Of a stretch of 64,000 nt of DNA, positions 14,853 through 43,433 are shown piece by piece (within the stretch, counting starts at the first letter, position 1; each line of letters starts with the position of its first letter). The stretch is from Escherichia coli. Lineage in GTDB: Bacteria > Pseudomonadota > Gammaproteobacteria > Enterobacterales > Enterobacteriaceae. The position numbers and the translations under genes are program-made. The stretch lies in the NCBI RefSeq assembly GCF_013315695.1, contig NZ_CP054353.1. The stretch is one strand, 5' to 3'. A model generated the notes under the pieces. That model saw only the letters and a list, made by a program, of their open reading frames with translations, ran no database searches and was not told the origin of the DNA.

Positions 14853-15025
14853 AAAGTTCTTTTGCGCTGCATTGCTGGCGTAAATGTCAGCAATGCAGCA
14901 TTTCCTCACGATTCTTCTTTGACGATCGCACTTTTTGCTCGTTATGATGGCGTCGCTAGCCTCAGTAAATCCTTACTCCGGCGGTGCGCAACCCGTGCGC
15001 GTGAACCACTATCTGAATGCTCATC

Positions 15026-24340: not shown

Positions 24341-25028
24341 TTAAATGCCGAGTGGGAAAATATCATGGCCTTGTTCCTGCCAACTGGTGAGTTGCTGCTG
24401 TTGGGCGGAGGTTCGATTTTCACCGCACCACACCAGCAATGTACGGCCTTCGAACAGTTCAGGGCGTAGTTGATTGAGCGAGTGGGCGAGGACATCAATG
24501 CGCCATCCTTGTTGACTGGCAATCCAGCCCTCCAGCCACAGACGGGTGGTATCCTGAATATTCCAGCCAACCACCAGCGCATCTTTACCCTGTTTTTTAC
24601 GTGCCGAAGCCAGACAAATGGCAATGTAGTTGATCAGTACGCCGTCGAGGATCGCCAGCAGCGCCTGGAGAGTCGGTTGTTGGCACTGAAGCCGTCGGCG
24701 CAGTGGAATGAACAGATGTGTGGTGAGTGTCTGGGCGGGGTAATCCTGACCGCGCTCTTTGATCCACGTTCGCAGGCTATGCAGATTGCCGCTTTGCAGG
24801 TAAGTCAGTAATGTTTCTTGCTGATCGCGCCAGCCGTTCTGCACATCAACATTTTCATTACTGAGCAGCATTTTTACTTTGCTGACCTGCACGCCATTGT
24901 CGATCCAGCGTTTGATCTCGCGGATCCGGTCAATATCGGCATCGTTGAACAGCCGATGACCGCCGTCTGTCCGTTGCGGTTTCAGCAATCCGTAACGCCT
25001 CTGCCACGCGCGTAACGTGACAGGGATT
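24341..25028 (-). pseudogene. mlrA: mlrA (yehV) MerR-family curli regulator, 5'-truncated by prophage integration
   Basis: The frame reads ...PVTLRAWQRRYGLLKPQRTDGGHRLFNDADIDRIREIKRWIDNG... to the native C-terminus ...GHDIFPLGI. The first ~17 codons (MALYTIGEVALLCDIN, most of HTH helix 1-2) are missing and replaced by phage DNA. The M of the 215-aa ORF in the track is a non-ATG artefact. Confidence 0.85.
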
Positions 25029-25062
25029 AAGGGTAAACTAACTGATTTTACAAGTTTTTATT
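25029..25062. other. approximate attL junction (bacterial/phage boundary)
   Basis: mlrA homology ends near 25028 and the integrase stop is at 25063. The core sequence cannot be defined without attR or attB. Confidence 0.4.
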
Positions 25063-26349
25063 TTACCCCACTTTCTTATGGGGCATACATGGGACACTTT
25101 CAGATAGTCTTTTGTTAAGGAGTTCTATCTGTTCGTGATTGTTGTCTTTCATCCATGCTCCGTAAACATTGAATACCATTTGTGCGTTTGTGTGGCCCAT
25201 CTGGCTTGCGATAAAACTAGGATTAGCTCCAGCGGCAAGTGACCAGCATGCATAAGTATGCCTGGATTGGTACGATTTTCTGTGTCTCAGACCTGCGTGT
25301 TTTAAGATACTTGTCCATGACTCCCTGATGGAGTCAACCTTATAGTGCGGTCCGGAAAACTGCCGCTGTTTTATTACCTGAGGACTAAAAACAAAAGTGC
25401 ATTTATGCACAGTACTTCTCCCATATTCCCTCTGCTTTACCTCTACAGAATGTTGCTTTCCAAGCATGGTCATTTCCGCCTGACTTTTAAGAGCATCAAT
25501 AGCTGGTTGAACCAGATGAATTGTCCTTCCGGTGCCAGCATCGGTTTTTGGTGGAGTGAATTCGCCAAGTTTTGTATAATTCCTACGGATGGTTATAGTC
25601 CTTGCTTTAAGATCTATATCTTCCCATGCCAGCGATACCAGCTCCCCGTGACGAATACCCGTGTATACAGCGAGAATCCACAGGTTTTTTGTTTGTTGAT
25701 GACGGCAAGCCTCAATAAAACGAATAAATTCGTCACGGGTGAGAGGATCTGGTTTTACCTTGGACTTTTTTAAGGGAGCCAGACCGTTAAATGGGTTTCC
25801 TGAGGTATAACCATTATCTGTTGCAAATTGAAACATTCCAGCTATGGTTGTCATATAGTAGTTTACCGTGACCACTGAGCGCCCTTTTATGGAAGAAGTC
25901 TTTCCATTAGAAAGTTTTTGGTAACCGGTCAACAAATCTCTCCTTACGAAAAGTAAATCCTCTTTTGTTATGGATGAAACCAGTTTTTTTTCACCTAACA
26001 TTGGTAACATGTTTTTAATTACTGACTGGTAACGGTTAAGTGCATTCGCACAAATCTCAATTTTCTTAAGGTCCAACCATTTTTCCGAAAGTGCCTTAAC
26101 GGTTATCTCTCTTTTTCCCAGACCAAAGTGTTTCAGGTTAGGGGAATTAGGGAACTGCGCGGAGTAGTCGAAACTCCCCATTCTGATTGCAAAACAAACG
26201 GAAGTGCGAAGTTCACCAGCGATCTTCCGGTTTTTGGCTGTGTCAGGAACACCGAGGTTTTCTCTGACACGTTTGCCATTATAGTGAAACCATATACGGA
26301 GTGATCCTCCATGGTTTTCAACGCCTGTCGGGTATGATGCGTTACTCAT
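25063..26349 (-). CDS. int: tyrosine integrase (428 aa)
   Basis: N-terminal arm-binding domain (SLRIWFHYNGKRVRE). C-terminal catalytic residues in ...YTGIRHGEL...HSRHTYACW...MGHTNAQMVFNVYG (R, H-x-x-R, Y). Adjacent to the attachment junction. Confidence 0.95.
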   Translation of the reverse strand: MSNASYPTGVENHGGSLRIWFHYNGKRVRENLGVPDTAKNRKIAGELRTSVCFAIRMGSFDYSAQFPNSPNLKHFGLGKREITVKALSEKWLDLKKIEICANALNRYQSVIKNMLPMLGEKKLVSSITKEDLLFVRRDLLTGYQKLSNGKTSSIKGRSVVTVNYYMTTIAGMFQFATDNGYTSGNPFNGLAPLKKSKVKPDPLTRDEFIRFIEACRHQQTKNLWILAVYTGIRHGELVSLAWEDIDLKARTITIRRNYTKLGEFTPPKTDAGTGRTIHLVQPAIDALKSQAEMTMLGKQHSVEVKQREYGRSTVHKCTFVFSPQVIKQRQFSGPHYKVDSIRESWTSILKHAGLRHRKSYQSRHTYACWSLAAGANPSFIASQMGHTNAQMVFNVYGAWMKDNNHEQIELLNKRLSESVPCMPHKKVG

Positions 26350-30160: not shown

Positions 30161-31078
30161 TTAAGTTGTTGGATTTTGGCTTTTATCTTCTTTGTAAGAA
30201 AGAAGGTCACACATCAAATTAACTACCTTGCTGAATTGGAAAAGGTCAGCGCCAGTCTGATGACGCCACTGGAATGCTTTATCATCTTCATCATTAAATG
30301 TCTGAGATTGAGTATTGATGCGCGAAAAATGGAAATTTTCGGTAAGAATGAAGGTCACACCGCAACCGGATAACTCCATTTTATCAGCAGTGAAACTACT
30401 ACTAAGGCTATCGGCCAGTTCGCTTTGAATTGACTCATGCTCAGCTGAGTAGCGAATAATTTCCTTTTGATCTGCGTAGCGTGATAGCTGAATATAATTT
30501 CCGACAGTGAATCCTTCAAATGCATTGGCTGCACCATTGATGTAGTTATTCAGGCGTGTAGTCAGTCCATTCTTGATATCACTGATGTTGATTGTTTCTG
30601 TTTTCACTGAACCGACAACCTTAATCAGCATTGCGCATACCATACCGGCTATTATTTTATTGGTTGTGTTGATTACCAATAATTTCTCATCAGTGCTGTA
30701 CAATGCAAGAATCAGAGTAGACTTAACAAATGCCTGTTTGCATAGATCTACTCGTACGTTATCAATAATGGCCAGTCGTTCGGCACGCTTTAATTTATTC
30801 CCGGACATATTTTCGGTTGTTTGGATTCGAGAATTAGCTTCTTTCATGACGACATGTCGGGGAATTATTTTCTGATCATGACGGATTACCATTGCGTACC
30901 CACCAGATATCGGAGTTACCAGTTCACCAGTGACAGGATTCTCTACAAAAGAGGACCGTGAAAATTCTGTTTCCCCGATTTCAGAATAAGGGAGTTCGAG
31001 AAGATGACCTTCAATAGCCTGTATACTAGGTAATGTTGCTCGGTACACAATTGCGTTACGAAATTTTGGTAATTTCAT
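30161..31078 (-). CDS. RdgC-like recombination-associated protein (305 aa)
   Basis: ORF 30161-31279. Start taken at MKLPKFRNAIVYRATLP preceded by GAGGAAAATAGA. Size and N-terminal motif are typical of RdgC. The upstream 67 codons of the ORF lie in the structured leader. Confidence 0.7.
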   Translation of the reverse strand: MKLPKFRNAIVYRATLPSIQAIEGHLLELPYSEIGETEFSRSSFVENPVTGELVTPISGGYAMVIRHDQKIIPRHVVMKEANSRIQTTENMSGNKLKRAERLAIIDNVRVDLCKQAFVKSTLILALYSTDEKLLVINTTNKIIAGMVCAMLIKVVGSVKTETINISDIKNGLTTRLNNYINGAANAFEGFTVGNYIQLSRYADQKEIIRYSAEHESIQSELADSLSSSFTADKMELSGCGVTFILTENFHFSRINTQSQTFNDEDDKAFQWRHQTGADLFQFSKVVNLMCDLLSYKEDKSQNPTT

Positions 31079-31113
31079 TCTATTTTCCTCTGCACAATGT
31101 ATTAGTTTCTCCA

Positions 31114-31200
31114 CAAAACAGAGAAGAACACCTGCGGTGGCAGCCGCCCGGATGGATTGGGTTATGAGCCCGTCGTCCGGTGATGCTCTTCTCTGTTTTG
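31114..31200. repeat. 14-bp perfect inverted repeat with 59-nt spacer
   Basis: CAAAACAGAGAAGA (31114-31127) and TCTTCTCTGTTTTG (31187-31200). Lies between the DicF-like terminator and the rdgC-like start. Confidence 0.6.
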
Positions 31201-31247
31201 TAAAAAGAGCGGTACCAGCCGGAAGCAAGTGTACAAACTGGTACCGC
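31201..31247 (-). terminator. intrinsic terminator at the end of the PL leader
   Basis: Minus strand reads GCGGTACCAG-(19 nt)-CTGGTACCGC followed by TCTTTTTA. 10-bp perfect stem. Confidence 0.7.
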
Positions 31248-31265
31248 CAAAGCAGTGGCTGTTGT
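31202..31265 (-). ncRNA. dicF: DicF-like small RNA (5' end approximate)
   Basis: Minus strand ...CTGCTTTGGCGGTACCAGTTTGTACACTTGCTTCCGGCTGGTACCGCTCTTTTT. The core TTTGGCGGTACCAGTTTGTAC closely matches K-12 DicF TTTGGCGGTATCAGTTTTAC (sequence from memory). Same context as Qin dicA - leader - dicF - terminator. Confidence 0.5.
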
Positions 31266-31658
31266 GGTGGGGTTGTCACTCAGGCGTATGGTCAACCTGA
31301 CAACCCGGTGTCCTCAACGGGGAAAGAGTAACCCCGCCATACTTACCGCCGCGCCATTTCGCGGATTACCACAACGCTGAGAGCACTTAGCCAGTTACGG
31401 CACCACACTTTGTCGCGGTTCCATAAATGCCCTCATCGTTGCACCCTGGTCTCTTCCCAGGCGTCAAACCGAATCGCCACGCTGGTTAGGCGTCTTATCA
31501 GCATCCTCATTGACTTGCACATTCCGGCTATCTGGTTTGTTTGCCCGAGCAAGGAGTGGATTGTCCCCTTTAACGTCCCCAGACCGCTAACGACGCATGT
31601 GCCATACGCCGTGTTACAACCAAATTTTGTTAGTACCTTGTTTGTAGGTCTGGAGAGA

Positions 31659-31687
31659 AAGATAAAATGAAGTTGCGCATTATGCAA
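31659..31687 (-). promoter_or_regulatory. putative PL promoter
   Basis: Minus strand TTGCAT (31682-31687), 17-nt spacer, TATCTT (31659-31664). The -35 lies inside operator OL1. Confidence 0.45.
31673..31687. promoter_or_regulatory. operator OL1 (TTGC-N7-GCAA)
   Basis: TTGCGCATTATGCAA. Same 15-bp palindromic pattern as 31696-31710 and 32480-32494. Confidence 0.55.
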
Positions 31688-31695
31688 GTGTTTTA

Positions 31696-31710
31696 TTGCG
31701 AGATAAGCAA
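31696..31710. promoter_or_regulatory. operator OL2 (TTGC-N7-GCAA)
   Basis: TTGCGAGATAAGCAA. Confidence 0.55.
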
Positions 31711-31722
31711 TTTGGTGGGTAA

Positions 31723-31745
31723 TGAAAAGCCACCTTCTGGTGGCT
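31723..31745 (-). terminator. intrinsic terminator after the repressor gene
   Basis: Minus strand AGCCACC-AGAA-GGTGGCT followed by TTTTC, 21 nt after the cI stop. Confidence 0.65.
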
Positions 31746-31766
31746 AATTGATGTTGAGGTAGGGGG

Positions 31767-32459
31767 TTAATTGTGTCGCTTAAGGGTCTGTGACTGACTG
31801 ATTAAGACCTTTCCAAAGACCATAAACCGGTGTTCGTTTTCGCTGGTAATTCCCCATTCGCGGTAAATCTGATTATCAGAAATTACCAGCAGTTTATCAG
31901 GTATCATTTGCAGTCGTTTGACGTAAATTTTATCATCAAAACCAAATACATATATACCATCCCCATCAAACTGATTGATACTGATATCAACGAAGATGAG
32001 ATCTCCTGGCTCAATGGTTGGACACATACTGTCCCCACGAACGTTGATAACTTTAATGTGATTTGCTGGTCGTCCACCAAACATCGATACAGCATTATCA
32101 GTTCTGTATTCAATGGCATGAATCACATCAATGACATCACCGCCCTGGATAAGGCCATTTCCCGCACTGGCACTGACATCCAGCATTTCAATACGGAATA
32201 CATCCTTCACCTGCGTAACATCCTCACTAATACTGTTTTTACATACAGTATTACTTTTGAGGTCTGAGGTAAAGAGATCAGCAATATCAACACCTAAGCT
32301 CCTGGCAATATTACTCAGGGCTTGTTCAGTGAATTGTTTCTGCTTACCTGTTTCGAGGCGCGAGATATTCGCCGCATCCACTCCTATTGCTTCAGCGAGA
32401 TCGGCGATTTTCATGTTCTTCGCCTGGCGAAGTTGTCTGACTCGATTTCCTATGTTCAT
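31767..32459 (-). CDS. cI: CI-type prophage repressor (HTH_XRE + S24 LexA-like peptidase), 230 aa
   Basis: N-terminal HTH (NMKIADLAEAIGVDAANISRLETGKQ). Possible Ala-Gly site (SASAGNG). Catalytic Ser (GDSMCPTI) and Lys (VKRL). Divergent from the cro-like gene. Resembles e14 YmfK/CohE as I remember it. Confidence 0.85.
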   Translation of the reverse strand: MNIGNRVRQLRQAKNMKIADLAEAIGVDAANISRLETGKQKQFTEQALSNIARSLGVDIADLFTSDLKSNTVCKNSISEDVTQVKDVFRIEMLDVSASAGNGLIQGGDVIDVIHAIEYRTDNAVSMFGGRPANHIKVINVRGDSMCPTIEPGDLIFVDISINQFDGDGIYVFGFDDKIYVKRLQMIPDKLLVISDNQIYREWGITSENEHRFMVFGKVLISQSQTLKRHN

Positions 32460-32465
32460 GCGTTT

Positions 32466-32494
32466 ATTACATTTCTTTATTGCGCGTTAAGCAA
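32466..32494 (-). promoter_or_regulatory. putative PRM producing a leaderless repressor mRNA
   Basis: Minus strand TTGCTT (32489-32494), 17-nt spacer, TGTAAT (32466-32471), then 6 nt to the cI ATG (32457-32459). No Shine-Dalgarno. Confidence 0.45.
32480..32494. promoter_or_regulatory. operator OR (TTGC-N7-GCAA) plus neighbouring related half-sites to 32542
   Basis: TTGCGCGTTAAGCAA. Further TTGCG/CGCAA half-sites lie at 32501-32518 and in the inverted repeat TTGCGTGA...TCACGCAA (32514-32542). Confidence 0.5.
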
Positions 32495-32500
32495 ATCAAC

Positions 32501-32529
32501 TTGCGCAAAATATTTGCGTGAAATAATAT
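32501..32529 (+). promoter_or_regulatory. putative PR promoter
   Basis: TTGCGC (32501-32506), 17-nt spacer, TAATAT (32524-32529). The cro-like ATG at 32557 is preceded by GGAGG. Confidence 0.5.
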
Positions 32530-33692: not shown

Positions 33693-33764
33693 TTCTGCAA
33701 TTCCGGGACGTTACACTGTTCAGGCACCTTATAAAGCGGGTGCCGGGATTGGCGTCCTGAAATT
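33678..33764 (+). repeat. 87-bp block, copy A (identical to 34541-34627); start of rha leader A
   Basis: Direct comparison of the two stretches gives 87/87 identity. Contains hairpin GGCACC-TTATAAAGCG-GGTGCC and site a1 ATTGGCGT. Confidence 0.9.
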
Positions 33765-33778
33765 CGCACATGCGCATA

Positions 33779-33800
33779 ACCGCGCTTCAGCGGTTTTTTT
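33779..33800 (+). terminator. hairpin plus T-run inside leader A
   Basis: ACCGC-GCTTCA-GCGGT followed by TTTTTT. Positional equivalent in copy B has a different stem sequence. Confidence 0.5.
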
Positions 33801-33827
33801 GCGCACGTTTCCTCACATCCAAATTAT

Positions 33828-33906
33828 GGTGGGGCGTGCAGGGGCATCGAAAGATGCGCCGGGGTCATGTGCGACCGGTTACGCCAACCCTGTACGTCTC
33901 ACCACC
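33828..33906 (+). ncRNA. c4-type antisense RNA candidate, copy A (ends approximate)
   Basis: Closing helix 33833-33843/33888-33898. GAAA-tetraloop hairpin 33844-33857. b' TCATGTGCGA (33865-33874) is complementary to 33944-33953 over the rha SD. a' ACGCCAA (33881-33887) is complementary to ATTGGCGT at 33748 and 33913. Helices co-vary with copy B. Confidence 0.55.
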
Positions 33907-33963
33907 TCTGTGATTGGCGTCCCATGTGGTGAGTTTTCAAAATTCGCACATGAGGATGTCACT

Positions 33964-34540: not shown

Positions 34541-34627
34541 CCACCAGCATATTGATTCTGCAATTCCGGGACGTTACACTGTTCAGGCACCTTATAAAGC
34601 GGGTGCCGGGATTGGCGTCCTGAAATT
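34541..34627 (+). repeat. 87-bp block, copy B (identical to 33678-33764); start of rha leader B
   Basis: 87/87 identity to copy A. It is preceded by the first 11 codons (MIRNIFKLFTN) of a duplicate of the 35384 gene start. Confidence 0.9.
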
Positions 34628-34643
34628 GTCAACGGCGATGTAT

Positions 34644-34663
34644 GACGCGCCAGCGTCTTTTTT
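34644..34663 (+). terminator. hairpin plus T-run inside leader B
   Basis: GACGC-GCCA-GCGTC followed by TTTTTT. Confidence 0.5.
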
Positions 34664-34693
34664 ATCGTCCGCATTTGCTCACATCCAGATTAT

Positions 34694-34772
34694 GGTGGGC
34701 TGGGCGGGGGCACCGAAAGGTGCGCCGGTCTCCGTTGACGCCGGTTACGCCAACCCCGTCCAGTTCACCACC
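34694..34772 (+). ncRNA. c4-type antisense RNA candidate, copy B (ends approximate)
   Basis: Closing helix 34700-34709/34754-34763. GCACC-GAAA-GGTGC hairpin 34710-34723. b' CTCCGTTGAC (34730-34739) is complementary to GTCAACGGAG (34811-34820) inside the rha SD. a' ACGCCAA is at 34747-34753. Confidence 0.55.
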
Positions 34773-34829
34773 AGTGAAATTGGCGTTTCCGGTGGTGGAA
34801 GTTTTTCACTGTCAACGGAGGCTGCCATC

Positions 34830-42980: not shown

Positions 42981-43433
42981 AAATGTCTCACAATTCAGAC
43001 GGTTGACAGTTGTCTGTTTTGCGGGGAGTTTGTTAAAAGAAACTGGCATGGTGAATCCCCCTGTGCGGAGGGGCAATCAGCAACTGGTGTTTTGTCACCG
43101 ACCCTTATCCTTTCTGTGCGGGTTCAGGTGCTGATACTGAACTCACCGGGAGGCACCCGGCATCATGTGCATGATGATACAGATACGCGGCTTTAGCCCC
43201 TCTCCGGAGGGGCTTTCTTGTGGGCAAAAAAAAGCCCGAGTGGGTTCGGGCAACAGCATGAGATATACATTTTTATAATCGAATGGATTTTAACCAGAAT
43301 TCATAAGGCTGCGCAACTGCGCGGTCTTTTTCGAATTGCGGGCTGTCGTCTCTCTTCTGCCATTGTCCTGTAACTTCCGGACTTCAGCCCGCTCCTTATT
43401 TTACTCACAATATTATCCCGGCCGGGAGGATTC

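Follow-up and report, generated by a model that had tools for sequence, protein, structure and literature searches.

In a 64,000-nucleotide stretch of an Escherichia coli contig (NZ_CP054353.1; hereafter the window), the candidate leftward early promoter (PL) of a lambdoid prophage is followed by a leader of about 580 nucleotides that, as we read it, encodes no protein and consists of a chain of conserved structured RNAs: a module that we call M1, a four-way-junction RNA with a pseudoknot (element A), a small RNA (sRNA) candidate ending in a strong terminator, and a long stem just after the terminator. Module by module, this arrangement appears to parallel the locus of the sRNA DicF in the Qin prophage, and DicF itself would be one allele of a variable sRNA slot of which the window holds another. 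M1 and element A are both widespread, and neither matches an Rfam family. The leader lies on the minus strand, as do all elements of it described below.

Element A (31261-31375) was delineated from its minimum free energy (MFE) fold and from covariation. In the MFE fold, the closing helix P1 (GUUGUGGU/ACCACAAC, 31375-31368 with 31268-31261) encloses helices P2 (31364-31360 with 31353-31349), P3 (31336-31332 with 31322-31318) and P4 (31306-31296 with 31284-31283 and 31278-31270). The pseudoknot, recognized by complementarity and covariation, joins GUAUGG (31342-31337), between the first two hairpins, to CCAUAC (31291-31286) in the loop of the last one. An initial annotation of this DNA had described the leader as rich in helices, and the helix that it singled out (GGGTTGTCA/TGACAACCC) does exist, at 31306-31270, four nucleotides off the 31274-31310 given for it; what it overlooked is that these helices are parts of discrete, widely conserved RNA modules. 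Folding of the leader as a whole is only modestly beyond chance (z = -2.1).

Element A is a real structured RNA. Over 34 distinct sequences from Escherichia, Citrobacter, Trabulsiella, Erwinia, Izhakiella, Salmonella phage F1055 and phages P1/P7, 96.4% of cells are paired and 13 pairs are changed on both sides, against 5.3 ± 1.3 in shuffled controls (0 of 500 shuffles reach 13) and at most three in controls with slid partners. The covariation is also seen on a MAFFT alignment. Compensatory changes affect five helices across Escherichia, Citrobacter, Trabulsiella, Erwinia, Izhakiella and P1/P7, and the pseudoknot shows a UA to CG change in phage P1.

With filters off, a covariance model of element A scores 161 bits at the leader, which is the sole copy within the window; there is none on the PR side. 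The element is present in 4416 of 5426 complete E. coli genomes, the Qin prophage of K-12 included, in 61 phage records, P1 and P7 among them, and in 611 P1-like plasmids. In thousands of genomes it forms an island of 92-94% identity between flanks that cannot be aligned. No Rfam family matches it, either at gathering score on the whole window or at E ≤ 10 on 1 kb and on 151 nucleotides, and the literature that we searched describes no structured element upstream of dicF, no tRNA-like link and no dicF-like region of P1. In the Shigella flexneri copy (L013) and in one other locus (L068), unrelated sequence replaces the 5' part of the element, that is, the closing helix and the first hairpin; in Shigella the terminator is degraded too. 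Such naturally truncated copies lend themselves to comparison.

The sRNA candidate (31202-31260, from direct reading and folding) follows element A, in the slot of DicF. Its 5' part is short and single-stranded (AGCCACUGCUUU), with a CCA at 31258-31256, and its 3' part is a 13-bp hairpin (31248-31236 with 31220-31208) with the tail UCUUUUU (-22 kcal/mol, z = -3.2). A GC-rich hairpin followed by a U-tract is what is expected of an intrinsic terminator or of the 3' end of an Hfq-type sRNA, and the stem covaries across alleles of the slot. A terminator scan missed this hairpin, whose loop exceeds eight nucleotides. The terminal string and strong terminator noted in the initial annotation are exact at 31255-31202; the stem has 13 bp rather than 10.

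Is this unit DicF, as first proposed? The Rfam model (RF00039) gives no match in the window at its gathering threshold (48 bits), nor at E ≤ 10 on 1 kb or on 151 nucleotides, an outcome that the proposal itself had named as speaking against it; authentic DicF scores 77 bits (5134-5185 of a Qin-like prophage locus). The search thus argues against membership of the family. The locus is nonetheless homologous to that of dicF: window positions 31375-31261 are 92-94% identical to the 107-115 nucleotides just upstream of authentic dicF, and megablast places a stretch about 94% identical to 31375-31269 in most E. coli genomes. In the Qin-like prophage the shared stretch lies between ydfC and dicB and ends 25 nucleotides before authentic DicF; in K-12 MG1655, the stretch homologous to element A directly precedes dicF. 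The terminator of the window aligns to authentic dicF only across UUUGGCGGUAyCAGUUU (16 of 17 nucleotides) and the U-tract. The DicF core quoted in the initial annotation was correct (K-12 dicF UUUGGCGGUAUCAGUUUUAC, window UUUGGCGGUACCAGUUUGUAC). However, the first 19 nucleotides of DicF (UUAUCAAUUUUCUGGUGAC) are absent from the window, and the loop (UUUGUACACUUGCUUCC as against UUUUACUCCGUGA in DicF) and 3' arm are replaced, so that neither the single-stranded 5' seed UUUCUGGUGAC nor the loop with which DicF pairs to its targets is found in the alignment. Because of these losses, inhibition of ftsZ, or an effect on pchA in enterohaemorrhagic E. coli (EHEC), is not to be inferred for this RNA. 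A search for targets of its loop within the window returned only the self-match.

What did stand is the layout, described as that of the Qin dicBF locus: repressor, PL-type promoter, long leader, sRNA and terminator, then the downstream genes are all present, and the locus is homologous to that of Qin. The sRNA candidate has the position of DicF: its operon is that of a prophage and under repressor control, element A precedes the candidate, and a long stem of the RNase III type follows it. We regard the label DicF as wrong for the family and right for the locus, the underlying sequence observation being largely sound.

A pattern search collected 141 loci with element A. In each of them, 12-100 nucleotides further on, there is a variable single-stranded stretch and a hairpin of the form UUUGGCGG...CCGCCCUUUUU, with many different bodies. 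Under the DicF model these slot alleles are graded, from 77 through 58.9, 43.5, 38.8 and 37.8 bits to no match at all. Shared flanks, variable bodies and graded scores argue for DicF being one allele of a variable slot, and for the window carrying another. Four distant alleles (L007 3690-3700, L021, L019 and L022, from Salmonella phage F1055, Erwinia, Trabulsiella and Izhakiella) have GGAGG, seven to nine nucleotides and then AUG or GUG in the terminator loop. The mini-ORF (open reading frame) that starts there, "MF(C/Y)R...", crosses the 3' arm and the U-tract, and its length and frame are unconserved past four codons; it may be a ribosome-dependent attenuator. The terminator loop of the window has neither a Shine-Dalgarno sequence nor an AUG.

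Beyond the terminator lies a module (31109-31207, z = -6.5) closed by a stem of about 24 bp (CUUUUUACAAAACAGAGAAGAGCAUCACC/GGUGUUCUUCUCUGUUUUGUGGAG), a candidate RNase III site. Ten diverged relatives retain the stem, and an AU to CG double change is seen in it. RNase III substrates are near-perfect duplexes of some 20 bp or more; this one has 24 predicted pairs and is conserved, cleavage being a prediction. In K-12, a 21-bp stem starts eight nucleotides after DicF, and nucleotide 72 falls in its 5' strand. The 72-nucleotide form of DicF arises by RNase III cleavage of read-through dicBF RNA (PMC9438474), while its 5' end depends on RNase E and the 53-nucleotide form arises by termination (PMC9438474, PMC6582626). 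The 24-bp stem of the window is the positional equivalent of the RNase III stem after K-12 DicF.

Module M1 (31438-31624) is a conserved non-coding RNA of about 187 nucleotides (UUUGGUUGUAACACGGCGU...UAGCCGGAAUGUGCAAG...CCUGGGAAGAGACCAGG), recognized by its conservation and by hairpin covariation: its peripheral hairpins covary, and 11 of 47 predicted pairs show double changes. It is present in 1834 of the 5426 E. coli genomes and in at least 120 viral contigs, and matches nothing in Rfam. Phage P1 has it directly after a tRNA(CAU), upstream of ban; phiV10-like phages have it upstream of a tRNA-Arg. M1 precedes element A in about 55 loci and a different element resembling the RNA STnc100 ("B") in about 35. 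The CRISPR array of E. coli 2012C-4502 contains a 32-nucleotide stretch 96.9% identical to window positions 31565-31596 or thereabouts, inside M1, apparently a spacer acquired from this non-coding module.

The place of element A can be taken by other RNAs. In a CPS-53-like prophage, the STnc100-like element B stands before the same terminator as in the window, closed by the same helix (GUUGUGGUG/CACCACAAC). The element A model weakly matches the B copy of the P1 ban operon (16.5 bits, E = 0.03), where the STnc100 model scores 33.4 bits, and this copy shares with element A the upstream AUGCUCUUUCC, the closing helix, 'AAU' with a GC hairpin, and GGACACCGGG. A genuine tRNA-Arg(UCU) occupies exactly the interval between the same left flank (AAGUGCUCUCAGCGUU) and a DicF-slot terminator in E. 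coli E7 (L154) and in at least 120 phiV10-like contigs, including phiV10, TL-2011b and O157 typing phages 9 and 10, and the spacer to its right is homologous to that of a locus bearing element A. The CPS-53 prophage of K-12 was considered as a second K-12 copy and discarded, the region being deleted there. In phiV10-like podophages (L154 3001-3510; at least 120 IMG/VR contigs), M1, tRNA-Arg(UCU), the DicF-slot terminator and a variable cargo ORF on the same strand sit between portal and terminase genes of the opposite strand, and the unit looks like a mobile, moron-like RNA cassette.

The ban operon of phage P1 (L005) contains all three module types, interspersed with tRNA genes: element A after the promoter Pban (3481-3613), the STnc100-like element before tciA (4827-4974), and M1 between tRNA-Ile and ban (5770-5990). 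They carry no RNA annotation except for a partial 'dicF-like region' (NC_005856), which covers only the 3' half of element A and the terminator and is annotated without a function, the sRNA part being degenerate. Element A starts about 30 nucleotides after the start of the C1-controlled Pban transcript, and a terminator follows immediately 3'.

Position and shape together give element A a resemblance to tRNA. It is cloverleaf-like in outline, with a CCA 3' of its closing helix in the window (the one at 31258-31256) and in most alleles; its four-way junction includes a loop-loop contact, and it takes the place that a tRNA has in a precursor. The likeness is one of position and shape only. ARAGORN finds no tRNA in it and the Rfam tRNA model gives no match, even on 151 nucleotides. 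Ancestry from tRNA is not supported by sequence, similarity to the tRNA-Arg of the slot being at chance (z = 0.7).

Directly 5' of element A there is a boxA-like octamer, UGCUCUCA (31378-31385), a weak lead given by its position. The rrn boxA is UGCUCUUUAACAA (that of rrnB was verified in K-12). Counterparts of the octamer are UGCUCUUUCC in the element A of Trabulsiella and the B element of P1, and UGCGCUUCC in Qin. It stands next to element A in many relatives; alone, it occurs at chance frequency (6 found, 7.3 expected).

In phages of the lambda type, the first gene after PL encodes N, a small arginine-rich protein acting at sites made of boxA (CGCUCUUA / UGCUCUUUA) and then a boxB hairpin. 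No such gene is annotated in the leader or detectable there, so that the early-left operon indeed appears to lack N, as first noted. The accompanying statement that the leader has no ORF longer than about 30 codons holds for ATG starts (at most 29 codons) but not for TTG or GTG starts, from which the ORF listing gives a 71-codon TTG frame (31295-31080), a 67-codon GTG extension in frame with the first gene, rdgC (from 31279), and an 84-codon TTG frame beginning within the -35 hexamer. PHROG and Pfam searches of the 71- and 84-codon frames returned no match. The start codons of the 71- and 67-codon frames fall within conserved RNA helices, and we rejected a coding role for both since relatives open different frames across the same nucleotides. 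The small ORFs of relatives (a ClpX-type zinc-finger 61-mer in F1055, phrog_3195 in the CPS-53-like prophage, YdfA/B/C in Qin) were likewise rejected as the leader protein because they are mutually unrelated and absent from the window.

The candidate PL itself (31659-31710, from direct reading) consists of TTGCAT (31687-31682), a 17-nucleotide spacer and TATCTT (31664-31659), and overlaps two operator-like repeats. Reading of the minus strand and the recurrence of these repeats between cI and cro (31692-31710 and 32476-32494, 89%; 31665-31679 and 32493-32507, 87%) agree with the promoter and operators as originally placed. The hexamers match the consensus at only three and four of six positions, and a consensus promoter scan did not list the promoter. 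Prophages with other immunity types share homology from about 31640 onward, a little downstream of the promoter, and we place the likely start of transcription near 31652. The first protein-coding gene of the operon is rdgC, with a Shine-Dalgarno sequence (GAGGAAAA) and ATG at 31076-31090, by direct reading and RefSeq annotation; the start codon at 31078 is the one first assigned, and its distance from the promoter is about 580 nucleotides rather than 570. The scan for consensus promoters found no internal promoter beyond the terminator, and a terminator scan of the early-left operon found no further strong terminators above chance.

How might such a leader work? We give about even weight to the reading that it is a cluster of RNA genes, built and handled like the dicF locus, rather than a regulatory 5' untranslated region. 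In its favour, the sequences flanking the variable sRNA on either side are homologous to those of the dicF locus, and the leader shows no protein family match and no conserved frame. What it builds on as observed is the anatomy of the leader, its homology and covariation, and the fact that different RNAs occupy the slot. Once the repressor is inactivated, RNA polymerase would start near 31652 and transcribe M1, element A, the seed and the 13-bp terminator hairpin, and many transcripts would stop at the 31202 terminator. A cut of the RNase E type in the U-rich stretch just 3' of the closing helix of element A would release an Hfq-type sRNA of about 50-60 nucleotides, whose targets would probably differ from those of DicF since seed and loop differ. 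Element A would mark the processing boundary and probably act as a tRNA does in a precursor, as a folded unit for tRNA-processing nucleases, because its slot is elsewhere occupied by tRNA-Arg or an STnc100-like element. A fraction of polymerases would pass the terminator, as at dicF, and RNase III would cut the read-through RNA in the 24-bp stem, giving an alternative 3' end to the sRNA and a defined 5' end to the rdgC...xis-int mRNA. Such a scheme needs no N protein, though the boxA-like motif may help against Rho. The processing steps are all carried over from published work on DicF, and the read-through fraction is likewise an inference. To the question raised at the outset, how transcription passes the terminator without N, the homologous DicF terminator, known to be leaky, offers a partial answer (PMC9438474, PMC6582626).

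Several points weigh against this reading. For this allele, the scheme draws on homology rather than on expression, end-mapping or cleavage. Element A fails as a tRNA by ARAGORN, by the Rfam model and by sequence, as said above, and its stacked helices P1 and P4 exceed the 12 bp that RNase P measures. Interchange in the slot speaks to position and not to function, and a boundary marker has no obvious need for a pseudoknot conserved at over 90% identity. In phage P1, 2.4 kb separate the strong terminator after element A from ban, a gene whose annotation has it expressed from Pban; this arrangement could require active antitermination. The efficiency of a terminator, besides, cannot be read from its sequence.

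An alternative that we consider doubtful is antitermination in cis: element A, perhaps aided by Nus factors and the boxA-like motif, would function much as HK022 put or Bacillus EAR does. Polymerase modified by the nascent RNA would then transcribe through the sRNA terminator and be resistant to Rho along some 580 untranslated nucleotides, which would account for these phages needing no N. Consistent with this, element A follows repressor-controlled early promoters and precedes a strong terminator in three unrelated contexts (PL in the window, the dicB operon of Qin, Pban in P1), no A-bearing phage that we examined has an N-like gene, none of the 40 A-bearing phage records listed (of 61) is a classical N phage, the boxA-like motif is directly adjacent, and strong conservation with a pseudoknot would suit a macromolecular binding surface. 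However, element A has no similarity to putL/putR, its model finds no match in HK022, and it is present once, not on the PR side as well. An ordinary tRNA can take the slot, with a terminator of the same kind and a cargo gene on the same strand after it. The octamer, at chance frequency overall, is absent or altered in the Qin and P1 copies, and boxA complexes of the rrn type act on Rho-dependent, not intrinsic, termination. A broader conjecture, which we likewise think unlikely, is that element A and its STnc100-type relative form a new class of pseudoknotted, cloverleaf-shaped cis-RNAs that occupy tRNA slots in untranslated early transcripts and do more than mark processing sites, as a protein-independent antiterminator or anti-Rho device in place of N, or as tRNA mimics. 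Were the former true, element A would replace N in many lambdoid and P1-like phages; were it a mimic, it would engage tRNA-processing enzymes or tRNA-targeting defence enzymes. Since a copy lies upstream of dicF in K-12, both ideas can be tested in a standard laboratory strain.

Other explanations carry less weight. That the 3' unit is a functional DicF, blocking translation of ftsZ (and in EHEC affecting pchA) on prophage induction, we find improbable: the position and the 16 of 17 shared nucleotides, which include part of the loop-proximal pairing region of DicF, speak for it, but the model finds nothing at E ≤ 10, the seed is missing and the loop is another. In the ftsZ start region, the best duplex forms 5' of both the Shine-Dalgarno sequence and the AUG, with an energy that 9% of shuffled sequences match; by duplex energy in this region, not even authentic DicF stands apart from shuffled sequences. 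Could element A and the terminator instead be a riboswitch-like or attenuator unit, in which the balance of termination and read-through depends on a ligand or a protein, or on a translating ribosome in the case of some alleles? Classic riboswitches have this layout, with an aptamer-like junction and pseudoknot followed directly by an intrinsic terminator, and the start signals in the terminator loops of the four distant alleles would permit a ribosome-dependent melting of the hairpin. Yet no conserved alternative pairing between element A and the terminator arms is seen, the spacer between them ranges from 12 to about 100 nucleotides and varies in sequence, the window allele lacks start signals in its loop, and in P1 element A is paired with a different terminator, all of which makes such a unit quite improbable. 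Least probable of all, in our view, is that the modules no longer have any function and are leftovers of mosaic exchange, such as decayed genes for tRNAs or sRNAs that recombination has carried along. The prophage looks defective, its int being truncated beside an insertion sequence (IS) element; the Shigella copy and some others are degraded; and module boundaries fall at recombination joints. Against this stand the compensatory changes in five helices of element A across genera and P1/P7, its identity island in thousands of genomes, and its presence in viable phages (cdtI, Stx2c phages, P1 and F1055).

The prophage offers further observations. Positions 31080-31760 (681 nucleotides queried) are 100% identical to E. 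coli MSB1_4I (NZ_LR898874) by megablast. The ORFs and the RefSeq annotation of this identical genome show a lambdoid prophage, of which this region is the immunity and early-left portion. To the right of an S24-type repressor gene (31767-32459, minus strand) lie cro-like and ymfL genes together with two genes for Rha antirepressors; left of the leader come rdgC, yfdR and small genes, then xis, the truncated int and the IS element. A Q-family antiterminator gene lies at 40275-40646. The early-left operon ends in the truncated integrase (25969-26349) next to the IS5-like ISKpn26 (24868-25848), and the prophage is probably excision-deficient for this reason. Two tandem modules of isrK and C4 antisense RNA (33724-33909 and 34587-34775, plus strand; 62 and 75-81 bits) each precede a Rha-family antirepressor gene, a duplicated antirepressor control unit of the P1/P7 immI type within a lambdoid prophage. 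About 2.4 kb past Q, upstream of an esterase gene of the SASA/nanS type, a block at 42692-43281 comprises a three-tRNA array, 78 nucleotides later STnc100 (43017-43225, 132 bits, with its own terminator), and AsxR (43229-43281) on the opposite strand; STnc100 as the last member of a tRNA array fits the idea of a tRNA slot. Outside the prophage early region there is a Peptidase-S11 RNA motif (14941-15021, plus strand, 72.8 bits).

Among bacterial sRNAs, DicF has been known for longer than most, and it has been treated as a single conserved gene. It now appears as one allele of a fast-evolving slot, in which phages exchange the seed and loop and keep the RNA modules on either side unchanged. If so, the host targets hit on induction would differ between prophages, and model-based annotation would miss most alleles. 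The RNA found upstream of dicF, which K-12 and some 80% of E. coli genomes carry, has a pseudoknot and covarying helices and belongs to no Rfam family. Its positional interchange with a real tRNA and with an element of the STnc100/PasD type links several orphan prophage sRNAs into one modular system. The region also suggests, in concrete form, how early operons of P1 and of lambdoid phages lacking N might handle an internal terminator and a long untranslated leader.

Among known systems, putL and putR of HK022 resemble element A in being structured cis RNAs that follow an early promoter in a lambdoid phage without N-type antitermination of its own operons. They differ in comprising two stem-loops of about 70 nucleotides, whereas element A is a four-way junction of 115, in showing no sequence or structural similarity to it, and in lying after both PL and PR, as against the single copy here, for which antitermination is putative. 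STnc100 (RF02076) and PasD share with element A a multi-hairpin domain closed by an 8-11 bp helix (GUUGyGGUG...CACCrCAAC), 'AAU' and a 5-bp GC hairpin after the 5' strand, 'CACCGGG' opening the last hairpin and, in CPS-53-like prophages, the same slot before the same terminator. By contrast, the STnc100 model does not match element A, nor does the element A model match the STnc100 of the window (43017-43225). STnc100 and PasD are treated as base-pairing sRNAs, and the slot relationship is not described (bioRxiv 10.64898/2026.05.13.724894). The 'dicF-like region' in the ban leader of P1/P7 also has element A about 30 nucleotides after the Pban start and then a terminator, with an STnc100-like element (before tciA) and M1 in the same operon; there, however, module order and spacing differ, tRNAs are interspersed and the sRNA part is degenerate. 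A further parallel is the Qin dicF locus (ydfABC-dicF-dicB under DicA in K-12). The window differs from it in its sRNA body, which is another allele without the 5' seed of DicF and with a different loop and 3' arm, in having M1 upstream where Qin has ydfA, ydfB and ydfC, in its post-terminator module, which is not the STnc100-like element of Qin, and in the next gene, rdgC instead of dicB. The two nevertheless have in common a repressor-controlled leftward operon without N, element A directly upstream of the sRNA (92% identity), a terminator that starts with UUUGGCGGUAyCAG and ends with CCGC(C)-U5, and a stem of more than 20 bp that begins within eight nucleotides of the U-tract, the known RNase III site in Qin, with the first protein gene just beyond.

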